This document shows positions 1,467 to 63,711 of a stretch of 64,000 bases of DNA, one piece after another. Origin of the DNA: Minisyncoccota bacterium (GTDB taxonomy: Bacteria > Patescibacteriota > Minisyncoccia > Phycocordibacterales > JAQTLZ01). Within the stretch, counting starts at the first letter, position 1. Each line of letters begins with the position of its first letter. The notes below the pieces were generated by a model that did not search any database, was not told the origin of the DNA, and saw only the letters and a list, made by a program, of their open reading frames with translations. Where the stretch lies: assembly GCA_028714635.1 (NCBI GenBank), contig JAQTLZ010000002.1, forward strand, positions 121,841-185,840, in the 5' to 3' direction. Position numbers and translations under genes: made by a program.

Positions 1467-1545
1467 AAACAAAACATGTAACCAGTCTCTCGGTATTTCG
1501 TCATTTTGAGTAAAGGTCGCATTACTCAATTCTTAGAAAAAAACT

Positions 1546-1803
1546 ATGTTGGGATATTGCGGAGGATATGGCGGGTATAGTTTTGATCTCTTCGGGCTGT
1601 TTTTGTGGATAATGGTCTGGGTGCTCATCATCGGTCTCGTCGTGAGACTTGTCCGCGAGCATCACTGGTTCCATTGGTTCGGCGCGCATCATTTGACTCT
1701 GAAAAATTCAGCCGCTCTTGAAATTCTAGATTCTCGATACGCGAAAGGCGAGATCAGTAAAAACGAATACGAAGAAAAAAAGGCCGACATTATGAAACAA
1801 TGA
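1546..1803 (+). CDS. SHOCT-domain small membrane protein
   Basis: N-terminal hydrophobic helix, then a C-terminal SHOCT-like motif (ALEILDSRYAKGEISKNEYEEKKADI). Confidence 0.75.
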   Translation: MLGYCGGYGGYSFDLFGLFLWIMVWVLIIGLVVRLVREHHWFHWFGAHHLTLKNSAALEILDSRYAKGEISKNEYEEKKADIMKQ

Positions 1804-1814
1804 ATTTGACGACT

Positions 1815-1952
1815 ATGATCCAGAAAAGAAAAAGCGGATATTACGTGCTTTCGGAAAAAACAAAAAAGAATCTCGGAGGTCCGTATAAAACTCATGGAGA
1901 AGCGGTGAAAAGATTGCGGCAGGTCGAGTTTTTCAAGCACAGAGGGAAGTGA
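1815..1952 (+). CDS. Small hypothetical protein (45 aa, below ORF-track cutoff)
   Basis: ATG 1815 to TGA 1950-1952 translates to MIQKRKSGYYVLSEKTKKNLGGPYKTHGEAVKRLRQVEFFKHRGK. Basic, non-repetitive, 12 nt downstream of the SHOCT gene. Confidence 0.3.
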   Translation: MIQKRKSGYYVLSEKTKKNLGGPYKTHGEAVKRLRQVEFFKHRGK

Positions 1953-2142
1953 TCTTGGATTCTGCCTGTGAACAACTCATTTCGCTTGAAAAAAGTCTTG
2001 ATTTTCAAGCACTTTTTGAAGTGCCTTTTGCACTTTTCTTTTTTGACATACAGATGCTATAGGCATACAATTTTTTTGGGCGTCCCTAGAACAACTGTGT
2101 TCCGGGACATAGCGGGGGTTAGTTTTGCAGGAGGGTTCGGAG

Positions 2143-2610
2143 ATGGACAATGGAACAGAGGCAAAGTACGTGGACGTGGCTGATCGGCTTTGGGAGGAGA
2201 GGAATGCAAAAGACACCATTGTCAGGGACGATGGGTCTGTGATGGCGGTCTTCCGCGTCCTCGAAATCAATGCCCGTCGCAAGGCTCGCCGGGTGATCCT
2301 CGGGATCAAGTTTGTCGGCGGGAAGATTTTCCAGCAGCTCTTCGTGGTCAAGAAGGAGAAGGGTGCCACGGATATCTGTCACGGCGACCGCCTGATCGCG
2401 GTTCATTCCAGTTTCATGGACATCGCCGGGCTCGCCAAGGCTTCGTTGTCAGAGCGTCTCGAGAAGGCACTGGCAATTCTCGAAAACGTCGCTCACAGCA
2501 TCAGGCGCGATCCGGGCCTTCTGGAGAAGATTCGCAATCCCAAGGATTGCCGTTCGGTCAACACAGTGGGCGGGCAAAGGTGGGACAGGCGGCGGATAGC
2601 ATACGCCTAA
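2143..2610 (+). CDS. Hypothetical protein in a GC-rich island
   Basis: Globular-looking ORF (ILGIKFVGGKIFQQLFVVKKEKGATDICHGDRLIAVHSSFMDIAGLA). GGAGG RBS 9 nt before ATG 2143; the ORF track lists an upstream ATG at 2125. Local GC is clearly higher than the flanks. A competing Arg-rich frame (2190..2723) was rejected. Confidence 0.5.
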   Translation: MDNGTEAKYVDVADRLWEERNAKDTIVRDDGSVMAVFRVLEINARRKARRVILGIKFVGGKIFQQLFVVKKEKGATDICHGDRLIAVHSSFMDIAGLAKASLSERLEKALAILENVAHSIRRDPGLLEKIRNPKDCRSVNTVGGQRWDRRRIAYA

Positions 2611-2653
2611 TTCGACTCAACCCTTCGGAGGGAACAGATTTTCGTTTCAGTCT

Positions 2654-2695
2654 CCCACGGCGGTCCGCAAGGATTGTCCGTGGGTTTTTATTTTT
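2654..2695 (+). terminator. Intrinsic terminator
   Basis: CCCACGG ... CCGTGGG stem followed by TTTTTATTTTT. Confidence 0.5.
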
Positions 2696-2726
2696 CATGG
2701 GGTATACTTCTTTATATAGATAATCT

Positions 2727-3809
2727 ATGCATCTTCACAGGATTACCCACACTCTCGAGAAATATGAACGGCATATCTCATCAGGAATGCTCGTTTTTGG
2801 ATTTATTTTCGATTCGCTGACGCTTACTCGAATCGATAAATCTCGCGATCATATTATTCTTGCTTTCTATCTACTTCTCGTTCTTCTCTGTATATTTTTT
2901 GTAAATCTTTTTGAAGAGCGCCAATTAAAGGCGGGATTCCTGGAGAAAGCCCAGCCGTGGCTTCTCTTTGCAATCCAGTTTTCTTTCGGAGGACTTTTCA
3001 GCAATTTTATAATTCTTTACGCAAGAAGCGCTTCTTTTCTCTCAAGCTGGCCTTTTCTTCTCCTGCTTTTCGGGCTTCTTGTTGGAAATGAATTTTTCAA
3101 ACGACATTACGCTCGTTTTGCCTTTCACATGAGCGTGTTTTTTGTCGCTCTTTTTTCCTTCCTTATCTTCTTCATTCCTGTTGTCCTGAAACAGATGAGC
3201 GGAAGCATTTTCTTTTTGAGCGGACTTACTACTGTCGTCCTCTTTTTATTTGTCATGTACGAACTGTCTCGGTTTTTTCCGGAAAGGATTGAAGACAGCA
3301 AGAGGACGCTTACATTTAGCATAAGCATCATTTTTCTTCTCATTAACGTTCTTTATATTACAAATATCATCCCGCCTATTCCGCTTTCTTTAAAGGAGAT
3401 TGGTGTTTTTCATTCCATCTATCGCAAAAGCAGTACTGAATTTATAGTGCTTAGCGAAGAGCAAAAAGGATATGCATTCTTGCGTTCCTCCGACACGGTG
3501 AGTTTGAAGGAGGGCGAACCCGCGTATGTGTTATCGGCCGTTTTTGCCCCGACTGGCCTGTCTGTGAAAATCATCCATGATTGGCAATATTATGATGAGA
3601 AAGAGGGATGGGTATCTTCCGCGAAAATTCCTCTTACTGTGGTCGGAGGTCGGGAAGGAGGGTACCGTGTTTATTCAAAAAAGGAGAACATTTCACCAGG
3701 ACTTTGGAGAGTGAACGTAGAGACAGAGCGCGGGCAGGTGGTCGGTAAGATGAAATTTCTTGTTGAAAGAGTAACGACAAGCCCGCAACTCGAGTCTTCT
3801 TTGCGTTAA
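2727..3809 (+). CDS. Polytopic membrane protein with C-terminal DUF2914-like beta domain
   Basis: Multiple hydrophobic helices over ~230 aa, then a soluble C-terminal domain (WQYYDEKEGW...GGREGGYRVYSKK...GLWRVNVETERGQVVG). Confidence 0.8.
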   Translation: MHLHRITHTLEKYERHISSGMLVFGFIFDSLTLTRIDKSRDHIILAFYLLLVLLCIFFVNLFEERQLKAGFLEKAQPWLLFAIQFSFGGLFSNFIILYARSASFLSSWPFLLLLFGLLVGNEFFKRHYARFAFHMSVFFVALFSFLIFFIPVVLKQMSGSIFFLSGLTTVVLFLFVMYELSRFFPERIEDSKRTLTFSISIIFLLINVLYITNIIPPIPLSLKEIGVFHSIYRKSSTEFIVLSEEQKGYAFLRSSDTVSLKEGEPAYVLSAVFAPTGLSVKIIHDWQYYDEKEGWVSSAKIPLTVVGGREGGYRVYSKKENISPGLWRVNVETERGQVVGKMKFLVERVTTSPQLESSLR

Positions 3810-55759: not shown

Positions 55760-56617
55760 ATGGAAGAAAAAAACAATAGTAATTCAAATAACCGAAGTTA
55801 CGATTCTTCACCCAGGAATGAAGAAAATAAGGGATTTTCGGGTAATGAGATTAAAACGCAAGATGGGCACTTTGATTTCTTGTCTCAGAAGTCTCAAAGA
55901 CTTTCCACTGCCCTTTATATGCTCACTAACCTTTTTGAGCAAAACGACCCTCTTCGTTTCAAGCTCCGGGAGATGGCCGTAAAGCTCGTATCGGACACAA
56001 TGTGTCTCATACATTTATCAATAAAAGAAAGAGATCAGAAAATAAAAACAACATATTTTCTCGCGACAGAGATACTCTCTCTGTGCGAGATTGGTTATGC
56101 ATCCGGAATGATGTCGGAGATGAATCACCTCATCTTGAAGAAGGAATTTGGGCTTTTTACAGAGACTTTGCAGTCGAAAAGAGTTCGAAAAGATGAAGAA
56201 AATACTTTCACTATTCCAAGCAATTTTTTCAGCGTGAATGAAATATCGGACAATCATTCCGGGACGCTTCTGAAAGGAGGCAGTTTCGAAAAGGATATAA
56301 TCAAGAATCTTTCCACGGGAGACAAAAGACCCCTCTTGGGTTATAAAGGACATTATAAAAGACATATAGATGTAAAAGACAATAATGTCCTTTATAAAGA
56401 CATCCAAAGGACAGCGCCTGCTGTTGATAGAAGAGAAATGATATTAAAGGCTTTTAGAGATAGAAAAGAAGGCTCGTTGACCATAAAAGACATTGGGGAG
56501 GTTATAAAGGACTGCAGCGAAAAAACTATTCAGAGACAGCTCATTGATATGGTTAAGAATGGTGTCCTAGAGAAACATGGCGAAAGACGATGGAGTTCTT
56601 ATTCTATTAAGAAATAG
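55760..56617 (+). CDS. Hypothetical protein with C-terminal winged-helix-like DNA-binding domain
   Basis: 285-aa ORF, Asn/Ser-rich N-terminus. The C-terminus (TIKDIGEVIKDCSEKTIQRQLIDMVKNGVLEKHGERRWSSYSI) resembles a wHTH. Confidence 0.55.
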   Translation: MEEKNNSNSNNRSYDSSPRNEENKGFSGNEIKTQDGHFDFLSQKSQRLSTALYMLTNLFEQNDPLRFKLREMAVKLVSDTMCLIHLSIKERDQKIKTTYFLATEILSLCEIGYASGMMSEMNHLILKKEFGLFTETLQSKRVRKDEENTFTIPSNFFSVNEISDNHSGTLLKGGSFEKDIIKNLSTGDKRPLLGYKGHYKRHIDVKDNNVLYKDIQRTAPAVDRREMILKAFRDRKEGSLTIKDIGEVIKDCSEKTIQRQLIDMVKNGVLEKHGERRWSSYSIKK

Positions 56618-57399: not shown

Positions 57400-59343
57400 A
57401 TGAATTATAAAACAAAGAGAGTAGTTGCAGGAGTTCTCGGTTTGGCAATGGCAGTCTCAATGGTTGCTGCTGCTGGAGGAGCTCTTACAGCTTTGGCTTC
57501 GTTCGACGTAAACCTTACTGTCGGCTCAACAGGAGCAGATGTAACGGCACTTCAAAACTGGCTTATTGAGAACGGATTTCTCAGTATCCCAGCTGCGACT
57601 GGCTACTTCGGTCCTTTGACCCAATCAGCAGTTGCTGCTTATCAGACAAGTGTTGGTATTACACCAGCAGCTGGTTATGTAGGTCCAATCACTCGAGCTA
57701 AGCTCAACGCGGGCGGTTCAGTTTCTGGAAACTTCCCAGCAGGTTGTACAAGCGCTTCAGGTTACAGCAGTGTAACAGGATTGCCTTGCGCACCGATTGG
57801 TTTCCCAGCAGGATGTACTTCAGCTTCAGGATTTAGTTCAACAACTGGACAGCCATGTTCGGGTGGTGGATCTTTCCCAGCAGGATGTACTTCAGCTTCA
57901 GGATTTAGCACAACAACCGGAATGTCATGTTCTGGCGGTTCATCAGGAGGTGGTTCACTTTCTGGTGGCGCAGGTGAAATAACAGTAACTGCTAAGACAG
58001 CTGGTACAGAAACCACTGTTGGCGAAGGAAAAGAGGAAAAGGTCCTCGGTATGGAGATAGAGGCTGATGATAACTCTGATGCTGAAATCACTTCTATGCG
58101 ACTTATCGCTACTGTTGACACCGATGGAGCAACAAGATTCAACCGATATGTTGACGAAGTAAAGGTATATATGGGAAGCAAAGAGGTAGGTTCATTGGAT
58201 TCATCTGATTTCTCACGAGATGCAGCTGAATTCACTGGAACCATTTCTCTCCATGGTGCCGTCGTACAGAAAGGCGAGAAAGTTCGATTCTATGTCGCTT
58301 TTGTCGCTAACAACATTATTGATTCTGATGATCTAGACAATACGATCAATCTCGTCGTAAGTCGAATCCGATTTACTGACGCTACAGGAGCAATCCTCAC
58401 AAATGAGGACATTGATACTGATGATGTGACCGTATCTTTCGAAGACGCAACAGAAAGTGATGGAGCAAAGGTGCAATCAGACTCTTCTACACCTGATGCA
58501 CAGATTTTGAAAGTTGAAGATAATAGTAGTTCAGAAGAATACCATATCTTCTCATTCAAGATTAAGTCAGACTCAGGCGCATCTGATATGGAGGTCACAT
58601 CGCTTCCTATCAACCTCTCAATCTACAACGCATCTACTACAGCTATCAACACGGAAGACTTGATTGATGATATGTATGTGATGATTGGTGGAAAGAAGTA
58701 TGATGATTACACATTCGACAACACAAGTATTGCTACAGCTAGTACAGAGACCGCTATAGCTACCTTCACCATAGACGAAGGAGATCTAACAGTTGACGGT
58801 GGTACTACTGAGCAAGCTAAGGTGTACGTCAAATTCGGTAGACAAGAAGACAAATACGCTGCTGCTGATACAACAGTTACAGCTTCTGTCGTCGGTTCTA
58901 CTATTGACGCAGAAAACTCTAACGGTGATACCATTGACTTGACTGGTACTGTCACTGGAAAGACAATGACAGCTGCTATTTCTGCTGCTGAAGTCACAGA
59001 CTTCACTTGGGCAGTAGGAACTGGCGGAACATACATAGACTTCTTCTTCACAGTAACAGCTGGCGATGAAGACTTCGATGTTCTTACAGCAAGCATTGCT
59101 TCTTCTACATCTGGTAATGCAACAACATCTTCTGGAACTCTCACAAAGAGCTCTGGCGATGATGTAACTAGCATTTCAGGAGGATTCACTGTCGCTTCTG
59201 GAGATACAACAACGTTCAAAGTTAGATACTTGGTAACAGGTTCTAACGGAACAATCTCAACAGTAACGATTACTTCTGTGGCTGGACAAGAGGTACCTGA
59301 CAACAAACAGGAATCTCCTACAGCAACAAGAAACGTTTACTAA
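57400..59343 (+). CDS. Cell-surface protein: signal peptide + PG_binding_1-like domain + three Cys-containing 20-aa repeats + Thr/Ser/Asp-rich beta region (S-layer-like candidate)
   Basis: Signal peptide. GSTGADVTALQNWLIENGF...GYFGPLTQSAVAAYQ resembles a peptidoglycan-binding domain. Three FPAGCTSASG(F/Y)S..TG.(P/S)C repeats. Translationally efficient codon choice (GCT/ACT/GGT/GAC). Two tandem terminators follow. Confidence 0.9.
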   Translation: MNYKTKRVVAGVLGLAMAVSMVAAAGGALTALASFDVNLTVGSTGADVTALQNWLIENGFLSIPAATGYFGPLTQSAVAAYQTSVGITPAAGYVGPITRAKLNAGGSVSGNFPAGCTSASGYSSVTGLPCAPIGFPAGCTSASGFSSTTGQPCSGGGSFPAGCTSASGFSTTTGMSCSGGSSGGGSLSGGAGEITVTAKTAGTETTVGEGKEEKVLGMEIEADDNSDAEITSMRLIATVDTDGATRFNRYVDEVKVYMGSKEVGSLDSSDFSRDAAEFTGTISLHGAVVQKGEKVRFYVAFVANNIIDSDDLDNTINLVVSRIRFTDATGAILTNEDIDTDDVTVSFEDATESDGAKVQSDSSTPDAQILKVEDNSSSEEYHIFSFKIKSDSGASDMEVTSLPINLSIYNASTTAINTEDLIDDMYVMIGGKKYDDYTFDNTSIATASTETAIATFTIDEGDLTVDGGTTEQAKVYVKFGRQEDKYAAADTTVTASVVGSTIDAENSNGDTIDLTGTVTGKTMTAAISAAEVTDFTWAVGTGGTYIDFFFTVTAGDEDFDVLTASIASSTSGNATTSSGTLTKSSGDDVTSISGGFTVASGDTTTFKVRYLVTGSNGTISTVTITSVAGQEVPDNKQESPTATRNVY

Positions 59344-59387
59344 TCTCTTGTGACTTATTGGGCCCAAAAGCCTAATGAGATGATTAC

Positions 59388-59420
59388 AAAACCGCCCTTC
59401 GGGGCGGTTTTGTTTTGTCT
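59388..59420 (+). terminator. Intrinsic terminator 1 after the surface-protein gene
   Basis: AACCGCCC-TTCG-GGGCGGTT followed by TTGTTTTG. Confidence 0.8.
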
Positions 59421-59453
59421 GGTTTCTCATATAAAGTTGGAAAGGCCTTAAAA

Positions 59454-59488
59454 GCCCCGCCGAGCTTGCTCTCGGCGGGGCTTTTTTG
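59454..59488 (+). terminator. Intrinsic terminator 2 (tandem)
   Basis: GCCCCGCCGAG-CTTGCT-CTCGGCGGGGC followed by T6. Confidence 0.85.
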
Positions 59489-59526
59489 TGGATGTTTTCT
59501 TCCGAGATGGATGGTACACTATTCGT

Positions 59527-59685
59527 ATGTGGAAATACTTCGATAAGACCTTTTTTAAGTTTCTGATAGGTTTTTTGGTCATTCTGACCGCCAGTTTTCT
59601 CCTCCTCATTTTCACCAACGCCTATAAGATAAAAATCGAAGCGCAATCCCAATTCGCCAATCCTCCTTTAGTGCAAGATCAATGA
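59527..59685 (+). CDS. Small hydrophobic protein (52 aa), translationally coupled to the downstream gene
   Basis: Stop TGA overlaps ATG 59682 (ATGA). One TM helix (FKFLIGFLVILTASFLLLIF). The ORF track lists this as 59488..59685 from an ATG inside the terminator T-run; ATG 59527 preferred. Confidence 0.35.
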   Translation: MWKYFDKTFFKFLIGFLVILTASFLLLIFTNAYKIKIEAQSQFANPPLVQDQ

Positions 59686-62600
59686 GACGGCGAGGGTTAC
59701 AAATTTTTCTCCTCATTTTTTCTTCTCTCTGCATTTTCAATATAAACTCTGTAAAAGCGGAGACCGTCATCACCGATTCAGAAATTTCTGTCGATACCAC
59801 ATGGACAAAAGTAAATAGCCCCTATATTATTTCAGGCGATTTGATTATCGATTCAGGCGTGACTCTCACAATTGAACCAGGAGTTATTGTGAAAATGGAA
59901 AACAGCGCTTTGTATGTAGATGGGAAAATCGTCGCGGAAGGCACTGAAAACGAGAAGATATACTTCACCTCGTTTGCAGACGATTCTCTCGGAGGAGACA
60001 CGAATGGCGACGGTGCTCTCACGACACCATCGGAATTCGATTACGACGGCATCAGGTTGTGGGGAAGCGACCCTGGATCACATTTCTCTCATGCAGTTTT
60101 CCAGTATGCTTCAATAGCTCTCGATTTCGATACCACTACTGCCACACTGGATGCTGTCTCCATCGAGCATGGCAATGGAGGAATCTCTGCCTTTAATGCA
60201 GATATTTCTCTTAAAAATTCTCATCTTTTCGATCTTTCATTTGATGCAGTTGATGGATATGGCGCGAGTAAGATACTCGTTGCTTCAAGCATTATCGAAG
60301 ATCTTCAGGGCTCTGCTTTTGGCATGTATAACGACTCGATGCTCATACTCAAAGACTCGACGATAAAAAATCTTCAAGATGGAACTGGTGTGATCTTATT
60401 CGATTCTTTTGCGGATATTCAAGATTCGACTTTTGAAAATATTACTCGGGATGCGGTGGGTGTCTACAATTCGAAGCTTACTTTCAAGGATTCTTCAGCC
60501 AAAGATAATGATTGGGGTTCTGCAATTTATGCGCAAGGCACAAGCGATGTCACCATTTCAGGAAGTTCATTCGACGGCGGTTTCAATTCGGGCGTTGAAT
60601 TTTATGGAAACAGCTGGAGCGGACAACATTCTTCTTTTTCTGTATCAAACTCGACTTTTCAAAATTATCTTTATGCCGGAATAAGTGCGGGGGATATTGT
60701 TTCCGGGAGTATCGCTTCAAGCACAATTCAGAAAAATTTTATCGGTCTTGATGTGTGGAATATCCCGTTGCTCATAAGCGGAAGTGCAATAAAAGAGAAT
60801 GATCTTCTGGGACTTTGGAATGAATCGGATGAAAAAGTAGTTGATGCAAAAAATAACTGGTGGGGAGATGTAGGAGGCCCGTACGAAGAAGTTGGGAATC
60901 CGCTTGGATTTGGAAATGAGGTAATGGGAGCTGTTAATTACACGCCATGGCTTAGCGAAGATCCATTTTTAGTAATAGAGCCGGAGTGCTGTTCAAGCGT
61001 TGCATTTTTGCCGGGAATCGAGGGAAGTAGGTTGTATAAGCAGGGCCTGATTTTTGAAGACCAGCTTTGGGAGCCGAATTACTATAGCGATGTAGAGGCT
61101 CTTCATTTAGATGCAAATGGAAAAAGCAAAGACCCTTCGGTTTACACAAAGGACGTTATTGATAGTGTAAATATTGCGGGTACAAAAATTTACCGAAGTT
61201 TCATGGATGAGATGGATGGTTTGAAAACCGCAGGCACAATATCAGATTGGGAACCGCTTCCGTATGATTGGCGGCTTTCCGCGGATGATACGGTGGCGAA
61301 TCCTGTGAAGCTCGCAGGCGGGGGTACATATTCGATGGTTGCCCAAATTGAAAATCTGGCGGCAAATTCGAAAACGGGGAAAGTCACGCTCATCGCGCAC
61401 AGTATGGGAGGAATTGTAAGCAAAGCGCTTATCAAAGCACTTGAGGCAAAAGGGGAGGCGGGACTTATCGATAAGTTAATTCTGGTCGCCTCTCCGCAGA
61501 TCGGTACGCCACAGACAATTGGTTCGCTTCTGCACGGATACGGAGAAGAACTTTTCCACGGACTTCTGGCGGGCGCAGCCACAATGCGAACATTTGGCGA
61601 GAATCTTTCCGGAGCGTATCAGCTTTTGCCTTCTGCAGAATATTTTACAAAAGTGTCGGATCCGGTTGTTACATTTGATCCATCAATCGATACCGTTTCA
61701 GATTTCAGACAAAAATATGGAGAAAGTATTTCCACCAAAGCAGGACTTCAGAATTTTCTTCTTGGAGCAGATGGCAGAGCAAAACCATCGGCAGAAGATA
61801 TTACCTTGCCGAATATTTTGAATTCTACAATTCTCACAAATGTAAATACACTTCATGACAATATCGATTCATACCAAATTCCGTCGGACATTGCAGTAAC
61901 GCAAATTGCCGGTTGGGGATTGGATACGATAAAAGGAATTAAATATCAGACGAAAGATGTAACAGTCTGCGCCGATAAAGGAGCCTGTCAGACGAATAAA
62001 GAATTGGACATGCGACCAATCTTTACGGAAGATGGAGATGGGACGGTGGTGGTGCCAAGTGCGGCGAAGTTGAATACGAGTAAATATTTTTTTGATTTTC
62101 CCCTCTATAACTCGCAATTTAATATATCTCTTGAACATAAGAACATTCTCGAGTCTTCTGTAATTCTCGATTTTCTAAAAAACAAAATTATCGAAGCGAC
62201 AAGTTCTGCTGATTTCATTACTTCCACAGAACCAGATCCAGTTGATCTTGGCAAACAGATTCGTCTTTCTGGTCACTCGCCGATTTCACTAGATCTCTAT
62301 GATAGCGACGGTCATCACACGGGCCTTATCTCTATTCCTAATTCAGATTTTAATTACGCAGAAGAACAAATTCCGAATAGTTATTATTTTGAACTTGGCG
62401 ATGGGAAGTATGTAGGATTCCCAGATGATAATTCCACAAATGTAAAAATATCTGGCACTGGTATTGGAACTTTTACCCTCGATATTGAACGAGTGGTAGG
62501 AGGCCAGACAACCACAACTTCTTCATACGCGGATATTCCCGTTTTCCCAACAACGCAAGCCTCTCTTCTCGTATCTGCGACTTCCACCACGCTTTCACTA

Positions 62601-62924
62601 GATCTCGATGGGAATGGTGCAGTGGATTTCAATCTAGCTCCGACGCAAGAGCTTGATTCAATCGCGTATTTCAAAGTAATGAAGAATATCATTGCTTCTC
62701 TCAACTTATCTCCTGGCGTTACCAAGCCTCTTCTTGCTAAAATTGATAATGCGATAAAGATGCTTCAGAAAAGCAAGGTGTCAAATGTCCAGAAAAGAAT
62801 TTCTAGTATGTTGCATCAGATAGAAATAAAAAATAAAAAGAAAGTGAATAAAAAAATTGATTCTATCGACGCACAATTCTTGGTTACTATGCTTACTAAT
62901 TTATTAGATAATCTCCCAAAATAA
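59682..62924 (+). CDS. Secreted multidomain protein: N-terminal right-handed beta-helix repeats + C-terminal alpha/beta-hydrolase (LCAT/PGAP1-like lipase/esterase) domain
   Basis: Signal peptide. ~430 aa of parallel beta-helix-type repeats (Gly/Asp/Ser/Asn-rich, repeated 'S.F.' rungs). Lipase-like region with LIAHSMGGIV (GxSxG) and LVASPQIGTPQ. Confidence 0.9.
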   Translation: MRRRGLQIFLLIFSSLCIFNINSVKAETVITDSEISVDTTWTKVNSPYIISGDLIIDSGVTLTIEPGVIVKMENSALYVDGKIVAEGTENEKIYFTSFADDSLGGDTNGDGALTTPSEFDYDGIRLWGSDPGSHFSHAVFQYASIALDFDTTTATLDAVSIEHGNGGISAFNADISLKNSHLFDLSFDAVDGYGASKILVASSIIEDLQGSAFGMYNDSMLILKDSTIKNLQDGTGVILFDSFADIQDSTFENITRDAVGVYNSKLTFKDSSAKDNDWGSAIYAQGTSDVTISGSSFDGGFNSGVEFYGNSWSGQHSSFSVSNSTFQNYLYAGISAGDIVSGSIASSTIQKNFIGLDVWNIPLLISGSAIKENDLLGLWNESDEKVVDAKNNWWGDVGGPYEEVGNPLGFGNEVMGAVNYTPWLSEDPFLVIEPECCSSVAFLPGIEGSRLYKQGLIFEDQLWEPNYYSDVEALHLDANGKSKDPSVYTKDVIDSVNIAGTKIYRSFMDEMDGLKTAGTISDWEPLPYDWRLSADDTVANPVKLAGGGTYSMVAQIENLAANSKTGKVTLIAHSMGGIVSKALIKALEAKGEAGLIDKLILVASPQIGTPQTIGSLLHGYGEELFHGLLAGAATMRTFGENLSGAYQLLPSAEYFTKVSDPVVTFDPSIDTVSDFRQKYGESISTKAGLQNFLLGADGRAKPSAEDITLPNILNSTILTNVNTLHDNIDSYQIPSDIAVTQIAGWGLDTIKGIKYQTKDVTVCADKGACQTNKELDMRPIFTEDGDGTVVVPSAAKLNTSKYFFDFPLYNSQFNISLEHKNILESSVILDFLKNKIIEATSSADFITSTEPDPVDLGKQIRLSGHSPISLDLYDSDGHHTGLISIPNSDFNYAEEQIPNSYYFELGDGKYVGFPDDNSTNVKISGTGIGTFTLDIERVVGGQTTTTSSYADIPVFPTTQASLLVSATSTTLSLDLDGNGAVDFNLAPTQELDSIAYFKVMKNIIASLNLSPGVTKPLLAKIDNAIKMLQKSKVSNVQKRISSMLHQIEIKNKKKVNKKIDSIDAQFLVTMLTNLLDNLPK

Positions 62925-63337
62925 TGAGTCATCGAAAAATTCTAGGGACACTGGTAGTCATAATAACTTTATTGTTTGGCATCGGTTTGTCATTGATGTA
63001 TCCGAATAATATTGGATTGTGTTCTATTGGAGAAAGGTGTGTTTACGATTCAGTATTTTATCTCTGGAAACCTCTACTCTTCAGTCTAATACCTGTTCTT
63101 TTAGTATTGATCTTATTCCTATTTCTTTCAGATAAATTTTTCAATATTTGGTGGAAATTTGCCCTTGTTTATTTTATTCTCGCTTTTTTGTGGATTTCGA
63201 CAACACCCATAATGTGCCGCAGTCTTATCTGTTTTGACCGTGAATATGTGGCGATAGTTTCTGGAGTCGGATTTCTTATCGTTAGTTTCATTATAATCAT
63301 TACAAAAACTGTTCTTCTTCGCAGGAAAAAGATTTAA
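62924..63337 (+). CDS. Hypothetical membrane protein, coupled to the beta-helix/lipase gene
   Basis: ATG overlaps the upstream TAA by 1 nt; four hydrophobic helices. Confidence 0.55.
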   Translation: MSHRKILGTLVVIITLLFGIGLSLMYPNNIGLCSIGERCVYDSVFYLWKPLLFSLIPVLLVLILFLFLSDKFFNIWWKFALVYFILAFLWISTTPIMCRSLICFDREYVAIVSGVGFLIVSFIIIITKTVLLRRKKI

Positions 63338-63389: not shown

Positions 63390-63438
63390 TAGTTAACATA
63401 TGTTAACTATTGCAATCTTAGTTAACATAGCATATAAT
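63390..63438 (+). promoter_or_regulatory. Operator/promoter: 20-bp perfect palindrome TAGTTAACATATGTTAACTA + third half-site + TTGCAA-16-TATAAT
   Basis: Palindrome 63390-63409; half-site TAGTTAACATA at 63419-63429 inside the spacer; -10 TATAAT at 63433-63438 only 6 nt before ATG 63445. Confidence 0.6.
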
Positions 63439-63444
63439 CGACCC

Positions 63445-63711
63445 ATGGAAAATAAAGGAACCAAGAAACTCTTATCGACCGCTGAAGTGGCTAAAATCCT
63501 TGGAATTAGTCGTGTTGCTGTATTTAAGAAGATTCAAAGTGGTGAAATAAAAGCCCAAAAAATCGGCCGAAATTATGTTATCGAAAGCACTGATTTGAGT
63601 GCAGCTCTCGGTGTTATTTTATCTCCTGAAAGGAAAAAAGAGATTGAGAAATCAGTTGACAAAACAGTGAAAGAATACGGTGAAGCTCTCAAGATGCTGG
63701 GTAAAGAATAA
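63445..63711 (+). CDS. Excisionase/MerR-like helix-turn-helix DNA-binding protein (putative antitoxin/autoregulator)
   Basis: LLSTAEVAKILGISRVAVFKKIQSGEIKAQKIGRNYVI: typical Xis-type HTH. Leaderless ATG 63445 preferred over the ORF-track ATG 63400, which lies inside the palindrome. Confidence 0.75.
   Translation: MENKGTKKLLSTAEVAKILGISRVAVFKKIQSGEIKAQKIGRNYVIESTDLSAALGVILSPERKKEIEKSVDKTVKEYGEALKMLGKE

Follow-up and report, generated by a model that had tools for sequence, protein, structure and literature searches.

A predicted exported LCAT/LPLA2-family lipase and two small membrane proteins in a probable three-gene module of Patescibacteria

Enzymes of the LCAT family (PF02450), among them LCAT, LPLA2 (PLA2G15) and PDAT, act as transacylases as much as hydrolases. 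Some bacterial lipases are encoded with a dedicated partner, as in the LipA-Lif operons of Pseudomonas and Burkholderia, in which the gene of a secreted lipase is followed by that of a membrane-anchored protein that the enzyme needs. [quoted passage not shown] Outside lipases, the right-handed parallel beta-helix, variable between lineages, is the fold of phage tailspikes and receptor-binding proteins and of NosD-type proteins (PF13229, PF05048).

The CPR, or Patescibacteria, account for much of bacterial diversity, and we know of no enzyme identified in them for acquiring or remodelling foreign lipids. Although most CPR bacteria are unable to make fatty acids or phospholipids, their membranes consist of ordinary acyl lipids (PMC7242380). 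They are enriched in lysolipids, for which a phospholipase A was suggested as the source, with no enzyme named (PMC7242380). In Vampirococcus, a secreted phospholipase has been proposed for the harvesting of host lipids (PMC8080830). Our literature search returned nothing on LCAT-like or lipase enzymes of Patescibacteria.

Here, we describe a locus of a Paceibacteria (Patescibacteria/CPR) bacterium, located in a window of 64,000 nucleotides (the whole stretch of DNA that was analysed). Three genes on the forward strand encode a single-pass small membrane protein (U; 52 aa, positions 59527-59685), a predicted secreted beta-helix/LCAT-LPLA2-like lipase (1080 aa, 59682-62924) and a membrane protein with four transmembrane helices (D; 137 aa, 62924-63337). 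These open reading frames and both of their overlaps are present as described in the initial annotation. U, lipase and D probably form a three-gene module transcribed as one leaderless operon.

The catalytic domain and its family

The alpha/beta-hydrolase domain occupies residues 432-845 (60975-62216, + strand). Over residues 491-792, it scores 55.2 bits with the Pfam LCAT model (PF02450; positions 54-354 of 392; E 9.4e-15), well above the gathering score of 21, and nearly all of 120 lipase homologues carry a precomputed PF02450 annotation. The PGAP1 model (PF07819) reaches 27.2 bits (cut-off 24.3; E 3.9e-6), over 59 of its 233 positions around the nucleophile elbow. This second match is short and of the generic GxSxG kind, which makes LCAT the better choice of family; the LCAT/PGAP1-type lipase first proposed thus narrows to the LCAT/LPLA2 family. 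The motifs cited for the proposal, AHSMGG (residues 572-577) and LVASPQIGTPQ (601-611), are both found in the protein. Some sources label the homologues as generic carboxylesterases.

The landmarks of the hydrolase are YDWR (residues 528-531), the elbow AHS574MGG, D786 within DGDGTV, and H819. In profile alignments, AHS574xGG lies opposite AHSMG of LPLA2, in a column where the entry for the S165A mutant reads AHAMG, and DGD786GTV lies opposite GDGDGTV. The codons of the catalytic Ser574 (61401-61403, +) and Asp786 (62037-62039, +) were assigned from conservation together with this alignment, and that of the putative catalytic His819 (62136-62138, +) from conservation in homologues. S574 and D786 are invariant in the family alignments; H819, which follows the Asp in the canonical order, is invariant in alignments of 49 and 65 sequences and present in 97% of the 120 homologues. 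Across those 120, the three residues and YDWR are invariant or nearly so. The catalytic Ser and Asp expected of the hydrolase therefore have counterparts in the catalytic residues of LPLA2, and the lipase is predicted to belong to the serine hydrolases of the LCAT/lysosomal-PLA2 family, its triad consisting of Ser574, Asp786 and, putatively, His819.

The domain combines an alpha/beta-hydrolase core with the inserted subdomains of the LCAT family (membrane-binding and cap), and its fold is also that of Tle4-type lipases, Tle4 being the second-best structural relative. Identity to LPLA2 and LCAT is only 13-18%. In contrast to both, the window lipase is bacterial (Patescibacteria), has the genes of two small membrane proteins beside its own, and carries a long beta-hairpin (residues 738-782), an N-terminal beta-helix of ~400 aa, and a C-terminal beta-sandwich and basic helical tail of ~230 aa. 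Tle4 lacks a beta-helix and a Sec signal and is delivered by the T6SS, whereas the window lipase has a beta-helix and a Sec-type signal. LipA belongs to lipase family I.1/I.2, in contrast to the LCAT-like enzyme of the window.

Export signal, beta-helix arm and C-terminal regions

Residues 1-26 (59682-59759, +) read as a signal peptide: in the N-terminal stretch MRRRGLQIFLLIFSSLCIFNINSVKA, which precedes ETV, a basic n-region leads into a hydrophobic core, Ala occupies position -1, and cleavage is predicted between VKA and ET. This Ala (A26) is conserved in 92% of homologues, and a signal-like N-terminus with no other transmembrane segment occurs in 103 of 116. The signal peptide initially annotated thus has Sec-type features that extend to the family, and the lipase is a predicted Sec-exported protein.

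The right-handed parallel beta-helix proposed for the N-terminal region spans residues 27-430 (59760-60971, +), as delimited by Pfam and the conservation profile. It is supported by two stretches matching Pfam Beta_helix (PF13229, E 3e-12) and by profile matches to solved beta-helices (8egr_A, 7o0y_A and 2pyg_A), the best of them a receptor-binding tail fibre of a phage (8egr_A, 2.3e-13), followed by NosD (5e-7) and AlgE4 (2e-4). Conservation is concentrated in the cap (residues 27-120, including DDSxGGDTNGDG) and at the end (NNWWGDxGGP, residues 390-400). The middle (residues 120-360), which is the least conserved part, differs between homologues in both sequence and length and has no evident conserved catalytic residues; many homologues carry different N-terminal modules altogether. 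Its variation between lineages and its likeness to phage receptor-binding fibres make this arm a probable binder of glycans on the surface of a host or neighbouring cell. In contrast to tailspikes, it occurs outside any virion and is fused to a lipase instead of a glycanase.

Beta-helix domains typically belong to enzymes that act on polysaccharides, and the matches to NosD and to AlgE epimerases would also suit an esterase of non-lipid substrates. Such an enzyme would deacylate or deacetylate polysaccharides or other polymers held by the beta-helix, in the manner of a carbohydrate esterase or depolymerase tailspike, and U and D would be unrelated neighbours kept by operon drift. The carboxylesterase labels of some homologues speak for this alternative as well; we regard it as very improbable.

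The catalytic domain is followed by a beta-sandwich (residues 858-985; 62253-62636, +), delimited by DSSP of the structure model and by conservation, with HSP, D874, G881 and D974xxGxG as its conserved residues. A basic tail of four helices closes the protein (residues 993-1077; 62658-62912, +; 16 K/R against 5 D/E). Some homologues show faint FIMAH (PF22888) matches, listed with the evidence on the tail. The presence of D was considered as a correlate of tail length and the idea was dropped: the tail occurs with and without D, in no discriminating pattern.

Gene arrangement and the partner proteins

Two intrinsic terminators precede the module. The first (59386-59421, +), with a 12-bp GC-rich stem and a T-tract, follows the gene of the upstream surface protein; the second (59450-59491, +) has a 15-bp stem, AAAAGCCCCGCCGAG/CTCGGCGGGGCTTTT, and a T-tract. 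The folding energy of the region is -59 kcal/mol (z = -6.6). In a scan of these upstream hairpins, all Rfam matches stayed below the gathering score, and a riboswitch or small RNA was rejected, as the matches were terminator-like. Because both terminators intervene, the module is insulated from the surface-protein gene. That gene does lie directly upstream in the window, as initially noted; its membership of the unit was considered and rejected, since it is also missing upstream of the module in L002 and L088. A -10-like box, TACACT (59515-59520, +), preceded by TGg, lies 6 nt before the U ATG. A TAyAmT box 6-7 nt before this ATG is kept in the window and in loci L001, L002, L003 and L088, and the sequence farther upstream diverges; the box is the probable promoter of a leaderless U-lipase-D transcript.

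Translated from a GTG, U has 65 aa; the conserved ATG at 59527 gives 52 aa. Its TGA stop lies within the ATGA of the lipase start (...caATGAgac), and the last A of the lipase TAA is the first of the D ATG (...aaaTAATGagt), overlaps from which translational coupling of the lipase to both neighbours is predicted.

The arrangement extends well beyond the window. Among 600 pattern-matching stretches listed from 185,579 species genomes, tblastn confirmed at least 205 relatives of the lipase. Of 81 loci of diverse Patescibacteria, about 65 are informative, and at about 59 of these the lipase has U and/or D as a same-strand neighbour, which upholds the proposed three-gene unit, in the orders U-L-D, L-D, U-L and L-D-U (L, lipase). 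D lies directly downstream of the lipase at 45 of the 81 loci, and matches to a U-family HMM occur at 25, on the lipase strand every time; L088 holds a second U-lipase pair in a separate genomic context. Starting from the small proteins, a lipase adjoined in the one lookup made from U and in both made from D. This recurrence is far beyond chance. Together with conservation at the protein level and pN well below pS, it establishes U and D as genes, in keeping with the initial annotation, found beside the lipase in dozens of distant genomes. However, D is missing from about one third of the loci, including the entire U-L group, and U from about two thirds; because each is absent from many loci, neither is obligatory for the lipase. 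The module is chromosomal, often beside rplJ/rplL, in a conserved position and not on mobile islands, and it is not universal in Patescibacteria.

U has an amphipathic, basic N-terminus (KYFDKTFFKF), one transmembrane helix and a short external tail, and is under purifying selection (pN 0.12-0.23 against pS 0.55-1.0). Members of its family are mostly unannotated as genes. U as SecE, YajC or a pilin was rejected, as no family matched and inspection revealed none of the characteristic motifs. Homology between U and D was likewise rejected: KYFDKTFFKF resembles DKFFNIWWKF of D, yet the hhalign probability is 2%. Nor is either protein a detached domain of the lipase, as a search for Rosetta-stone fusions gave no D or U HMM matches inside the 120 homologues.

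D is a four-helix membrane protein, as first suggested: its structure model consists of four long helices (pLDDT 93.8), and the predicted topology places basic N- and C-termini inside and two short loops with Cys pairs outside. Its conserved motifs are an FxxWxKFA loop and ISL in TM4, and selection is purifying (pN 0.28-0.39 against pS 0.68-0.75). For the two small proteins, word-indexed searches gave only 3 and 2 relatives; an exhaustive HMMER scan was needed for D and found at least 452 cluster representatives at 50% identity. The family has no Pfam entry (best Pfam E for the window D, 0.56), and no solved relative was significant in the PDB (best Foldseek E 3.3). About 17% of its members match DUF202 or DUF4418 weakly (best E 9e-7 and 4e-5, respectively); DUF202 (YidH-like) and DUF4418 are also small multi-pass membrane proteins of unassigned function, but the window D matches neither. 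D is thus a previously undescribed family of four-helix membrane proteins. Four transmembrane helices and two external Cys pairs suggested a DsbB/VKOR-like thiol oxidoreductase, which was rejected because the pairs are lost in close relatives, that of loop 1 in L001 and L002, and that of loop 2 in L006, L011, L014 and others; the Foldseek comparison with VKOR was insignificant (E 5.9). The Cys pairs are probably structural disulfides. Lif, with ~340 aa, one transmembrane helix and a large periplasmic helical domain, differs from D, which has 137 aa, four such helices and almost no external domain.

Homologue P0046 has a C-terminal transmembrane helix of its own and still keeps D. D as a stand-in for a missing anchor was therefore rejected, and its retention by an anchored lipase argues that D is more than an anchor. 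The same retention, and the immunity gene that accompanies the second-best structural relative, Tle4, suggest an immunity-like reading of D. Taken strictly, this reading would make the locus a toxin-immunity pair: a contact-independent antibacterial or host-lytic lipase, comparable to Tle effectors and bacteriocins, with D as its dedicated immunity protein and any lipid gain incidental. Such a protein would be expected at every locus, unless encoded elsewhere, and the loci without D speak against it. The form of D also weakens the immunity-like reading in general: D is an integral protein with no detectable similarity to Tli4, which is soluble, periplasmic and made of two domains, and with its very short external loops it is unlike soluble or lipoprotein Tli immunity proteins. 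The lipase is under ordinary purifying selection (dN/dS 0.11-0.17), its chromosomal position is conserved rather than on mobile islands, and no secretion-system or polymorphic-toxin context is found. To our knowledge, Patescibacteria have no T6SS, and no T6SS genes occur among the neighbours in the window, L001-L003, L086, L087 and L089. A toxin-immunity pair is consequently unlikely.

Possible roles and significance for CPR membranes

The best explanation of the locus, to which we give a probability of about 0.5, is a surface phospholipase A or acyl-transferase acting on glycerolipid membranes, with D and U as its membrane partners. The lipase would sit on or near the cell surface; its most likely role, judging by its sequence, is to gather lipids from outside the cell or to remodel them, and D would protect the cell or regulate the enzyme. 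The beta-helix may hold glycans of a host or neighbour cell while the catalytic domain cleaves or transfers acyl chains of host phospholipids, yielding lysolipids and fatty acids. In the producer membrane, D could protect against or gate the lipase, in an immunity-like manner, and possibly dock it too, and U would be an accessory membrane subunit. A phospholipase A activity towards host membranes extrapolates from the LCAT family, whose members can be hydrolases or transacylases with various acyl acceptors. A more ambitious form of this explanation is tentative: the module would be the missing lipid-acquisition machine of Paceibacteria auxotrophic for lipids. In it, a host-specific beta-helix would direct a surface-displayed LPLA2-like enzyme to the host envelope, where host phospholipids would be turned into lysolipids and fatty acids or be transacylated directly, with D shielding the producer membrane and/or receiving the products.

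The position of the catalytic domain, near the C-terminal end that is membrane-anchored in P0046, would fit an enzyme that acts on the membrane of the producer no less than one that acts on that of a host. Remodelling of the own envelope is a possible, if doubtful, alternative, in which scavenged diacyl lipids of the outer leaflet serve as acyl donors, giving lysolipids or passing acyl groups to a glycolipid, lipoprotein or wall polymer, with D and U positioning or regulating the enzyme and the beta-helix as a spacer or wall-binding stalk. The transacylase side of the LCAT family favours it, as do the tight coupling of the lipase to integral proteins of the producer membrane and a chromosomal location, often by rplJ/rplL, that suggests housekeeping over an accessory gene. 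The lysolipid enrichment of CPR cells (PMC7242380) would fit as well. However, remodelling leaves the hypervariable, lineage-swapped N-terminal module unexplained, as it does the phage receptor-binding fibre that is the closest solved sequence relative of the beta-helix, and the patchy occurrence of the module in Patescibacteria counts against it.

As a surface phospholipase A or acyl-transferase, the lipase offers an expressible and assayable candidate for lipid uptake or remodelling in the CPR: it is widespread and predicted to be exported, has the fold and active site of LPLA2/LCAT, and is genetically tied to two uncharacterised families of small membrane proteins, with a lineage-variable targeting arm. 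Should the link to lipid harvest fail, the locus would still be a conserved operon of a lipase and its membrane partners, giving a genomic context to two new small-protein families. Should it hold, the lipid question of the CPR would become directly testable, and the LCAT/LPLA2 fold would be in use at a bacterial cell-cell interface. Lipid acquisition by this module, if true, would account for both the membrane supply of CPR bacteria and their richness in lysolipids.

An exported LCAT-type hydrolase

The 1080-aa lipase encoded at 59682–62924 on the forward strand belongs to the LCAT family, as indicated by its sequence score, fold, and active-site motifs. Pfam matched it to LCAT (55 bits, cut-off 21; 9.4e-15) and Beta_helix (3e-12); a PGAP1 match is limited to a short stretch at the nucleophile elbow. 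The motifs AHSMGG and LVASPQIGTPQ, highlighted in the initial annotation, are both present. A typical Sec signal forms the N-terminus, in which MRRRG precedes a hydrophobic core and a predicted cleavage site between VKA and ET. The Ala at −1 of this site is kept in 92% of homologues, and 103 of 116 Met-starting homologues have a Sec-signal-like N-terminus without any other TM-like segment. An AlphaFold model of residues 425–1080, built from 65 sequences (pLDDT 91, pTM 0.89), comprises an alpha/beta-hydrolase (residues ~439–839) with a long beta-hairpin insertion (738–782), a beta-sandwich (858–985), and a strongly basic four-helix tail (993–1077; 16 K/R versus 5 D/E).

When a hydrolase-only profile was aligned to PDB sequences, the lipase matched the motifs of lysosomal phospholipase A2 (LPLA2). 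PYDWR pairs with PYDWR, DGD786GTV with GDGDGTV, and AHS574xGG with AHSMG. Because the LPLA2-S165A entry reads AHAMG in exactly that column, S574 can be assigned as the nucleophile. Alignments of 49 and 65 sequences show no variation at S574, D786, H819, Y528-D529-W530-R531, or K581, and these residues are 97–100% conserved in 120. The initial annotation had considered that a Ser-Asp-His triad might be absent, which would speak against a lipase; this conservation, together with the LPLA2 motif pairing, indicates otherwise. Judged from its sequence, this is a serine hydrolase of the LCAT/LPLA2 type that is exported and has an apparently intact active site.

The organism is a Paceibacteria ('Pacebacteria') MAG, and NCBI holds a near-identical protein (P0001; 1078 of 1080 residues) named 'right-handed parallel beta-helix repeat-containing protein'. 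The two differences are D110G and D529Y. Since D529Y alters the invariant YDWR Asp, the NCBI copy may contain a sequencing error or represent an impaired allele.

Within the beta-helix module, the cap (residues 27–120) and the terminal NNWWGDxGGP (~390–400) are conserved, and the middle (120–360) shows the lowest conservation and the greatest length variation of any part of the protein. In many homologues the similarity begins only at residue ~430, and different modules occupy the N-terminus. Among solved structures, a phage receptor-binding tail fibre (8egr_A, 2.3e-13) is the best sequence relative of the beta-helix module, with NosD next and alginate epimerases after that. We infer that the beta-helix is a variable binding or spacer module and not a conserved enzyme.

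Two small membrane proteins linked to the lipase

On the same strand, the lipase gene is flanked by genes for a single-pass membrane protein of 52 aa (U), which starts at a conserved ATG at 59527 and ends at 59685, and a four-TM protein of 137 aa (D; 62924–63337). The three ORFs, the length of U, and both junctions agree with the initial annotation: at the U/lipase junction (ATGA) the U stop lies inside the lipase start, and at the lipase/D junction (TAATG) one base is common to the lipase stop and the D start.

U is conserved in the three closest relatives (L001–L003; 62–66% lipase identity) as MxK[YF]FDKTFFKFLxGF..., including L002, despite its different upstream neighbours. Nei-Gojobori counts gave pN 0.12–0.23 and pS 0.55–1.0 for U (dN/dS 0.05–0.15 where computable; pS saturated in 3 of 6 pairs), pN 0.28–0.39 and pS 0.68–0.75 for D (dN/dS 0.12–0.20 where computable; pS saturated in 1 of 3 pairs), and pN 0.19–0.24 and pS 0.65–0.70 for the lipase (dN/dS 0.11–0.17). 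By these measures, U and D are real genes. Their lack of conservation, which had been named as evidence against a three-gene unit, was not observed; both are conserved and linked to the lipase.

Relatives were sought in one genome per GTDB species, yielding at least 205 that were confirmed; 80 loci, nearly all in Patescibacteria MAGs, were kept and scored with HMMs for the hydrolase, U, and D, the D HMM being derived from database sequences and not from the loci. Across 81 loci, including the window, the arrangements were L-D (32), L-D-D (2), U-L-D (6), L-D-U (5), U-L (14), and L alone (22), where L denotes the lipase, and all U and D matches lie on the lipase strand. Nine of the 22 loci with L alone are truncated contigs and seven belong to a distant subfamily at 24–26% identity; with these set aside, U and/or D are present in ~59 of 65 informative loci. 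Linkage is kept where gene order has changed to L-D-U (L011, L015, L022, L057, L063), and U is retained on the lipase strand where an extra gene separates it from the lipase, as in L004 (region 1855–2854; 222-aa ORF) and L032 (region 1545–3001; 372-aa ORF). Approached from the D side, two of two arbitrarily chosen family members lie directly 3' of C-terminal fragments of the lipase family. From the U side, the sole additional database match marks another U-lipase pair, located behind polysaccharide-synthesis genes in the MAG that also contains L003. Gene order thus shows genetic coupling of the lipase to two small membrane proteins.

An exhaustive HMMER scan placed at least 452 cluster representatives in the D family at E ≤ 1e-3 (79 at ≤ 1e-10), almost all of 120–155 aa. 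The window D matched no family in Pfam or NCBIfam, and ~17% of D-family members have weak matches to DUF202 or DUF4418. Its model consists of four long helices (pLDDT 93.8), and a Foldseek search of PDB structures returned none similar (best E 3.3). Because the termini are basic and the TM2-TM3 loop is K-rich, both ends would be inside under the positive-inside rule, and two short loops with Cys pairs would face outwards. A DsbB/VKOR-like redox function was rejected, as the Cys pairs are too poorly conserved. U and D share no detectable homology, neither was found fused to the lipase among its homologues, and the lipase has its tail whether or not D accompanies it.

In L020 (5331, 5767) and L024 (7495, 8278), the lipase is followed by tandemly duplicated D-family genes, and D of L086 (6580–7107) has a Cys-rich insertion of ~45 aa in the first external loop; the external face of D therefore seems to diversify. 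In L003 (7079–7471) and L008 (2479–2757), the ORF 3' of the lipase starts D-like (MSHRKILG in L003), then diverges, and ends ...F(E/D)NFMSLS. As the D HMM does not recognise it, this ORF may encode a partner that has been replaced or frameshifted.

Transcription and genomic neighbours

Two tandem intrinsic terminators, each a strong hairpin with a T-tract (59386–59421 and 59450–59491, forward strand; fold z = −6.6), separate the surface-protein gene from U within ~100 nt. Their stems of 12 and 15 bp are very stable, and no Rfam match to their span (59386–59491) exceeded the threshold. L001 and L003 have equivalent hairpins. Given these terminators, the surface-protein gene is a neighbour outside the unit. 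In five loci (the window, 59515–59529, and L001, L002, L003, and L088), a −10-like TAyAmT box lies 6–7 nt 5' of the U ATG, a gap too short to hold a Shine-Dalgarno sequence; the surrounding sequence otherwise differs upstream. The proximity of this conserved box to the ATG suggests a leaderless U-lipase-D transcript with U as first cistron.

The surface-protein gene (57400–59343, forward strand) encodes a secreted protein of 647 aa in which a PG_binding_1 domain (aa 44–102) precedes three copies of a Cys-containing repeat (FPAGCTSASG[FY]S[ST]xTGxxC) and a long stretch rich in Thr, Ser, and Asp. This gene is also the 5' neighbour in L001 and L003, and not in L002 or L088. Further upstream, at 55760–56617 on the forward strand, is a gene for a 285-aa protein that has no family match beyond a faint winged-helix-like C-terminus; its position is conserved in L001. 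Directly 3' of the module lies a gene for a 103-aa HTH_17/excisionase-type DNA-binding protein (63400–63711, forward strand); L003 has an equivalent gene followed by a Fic-domain gene. The module often lies just upstream of rplJ-rplL, encoding ribosomal proteins L10 and L7/L12 (L001–L003, L023, L026, L028, L030, L049, L068), and this conserved chromosomal position suggests vertical inheritance in this class.

Possible roles in Patescibacteria

An immunity-like or gating role for D is suggested by analogy with the T6SS phospholipase effector-immunity pair Tle4-Tli4 (PMC4832377), by the position of D downstream of and overlapping the lipase gene, and by one homologue that has its own C-terminal TM anchor and still keeps D. 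A strict immunity role is nevertheless at odds with the absence of D from about a third of loci and with its lack of resemblance to known Tli proteins. Because it carries a Sec signal, lies in no T6SS context, and lacks a Tli4-like partner, the lipase itself falls outside the Tle4 effector class.

Our literature search found no paper on the combination of beta-helix, LCAT-like domain, beta-sandwich, and basic tail, its near-restriction to Patescibacteria, the conserved operon that includes two families of uncharacterised small membrane proteins, or a possible tie of the lipase to lipid acquisition in these bacteria (CPR); all four appear to be undescribed.

At the cell surface, the lipase would work on membranes, either as a phospholipase A or as a transacylase. 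CPR bacteria have no lipid synthesis of their own, presumably obtain their acyl lipids from other cells, and show enrichment in lysolipids, for which a phospholipase A, with no enzyme named, has been suggested as the source (PMC7242380); a secreted phospholipase has been proposed to harvest host lipids in Vampirococcus (PMC8080830). Against this background, a role in lipid harvest or remodelling is attractive, and we give lipid harvest by this enzyme a tentative probability of roughly one in four.
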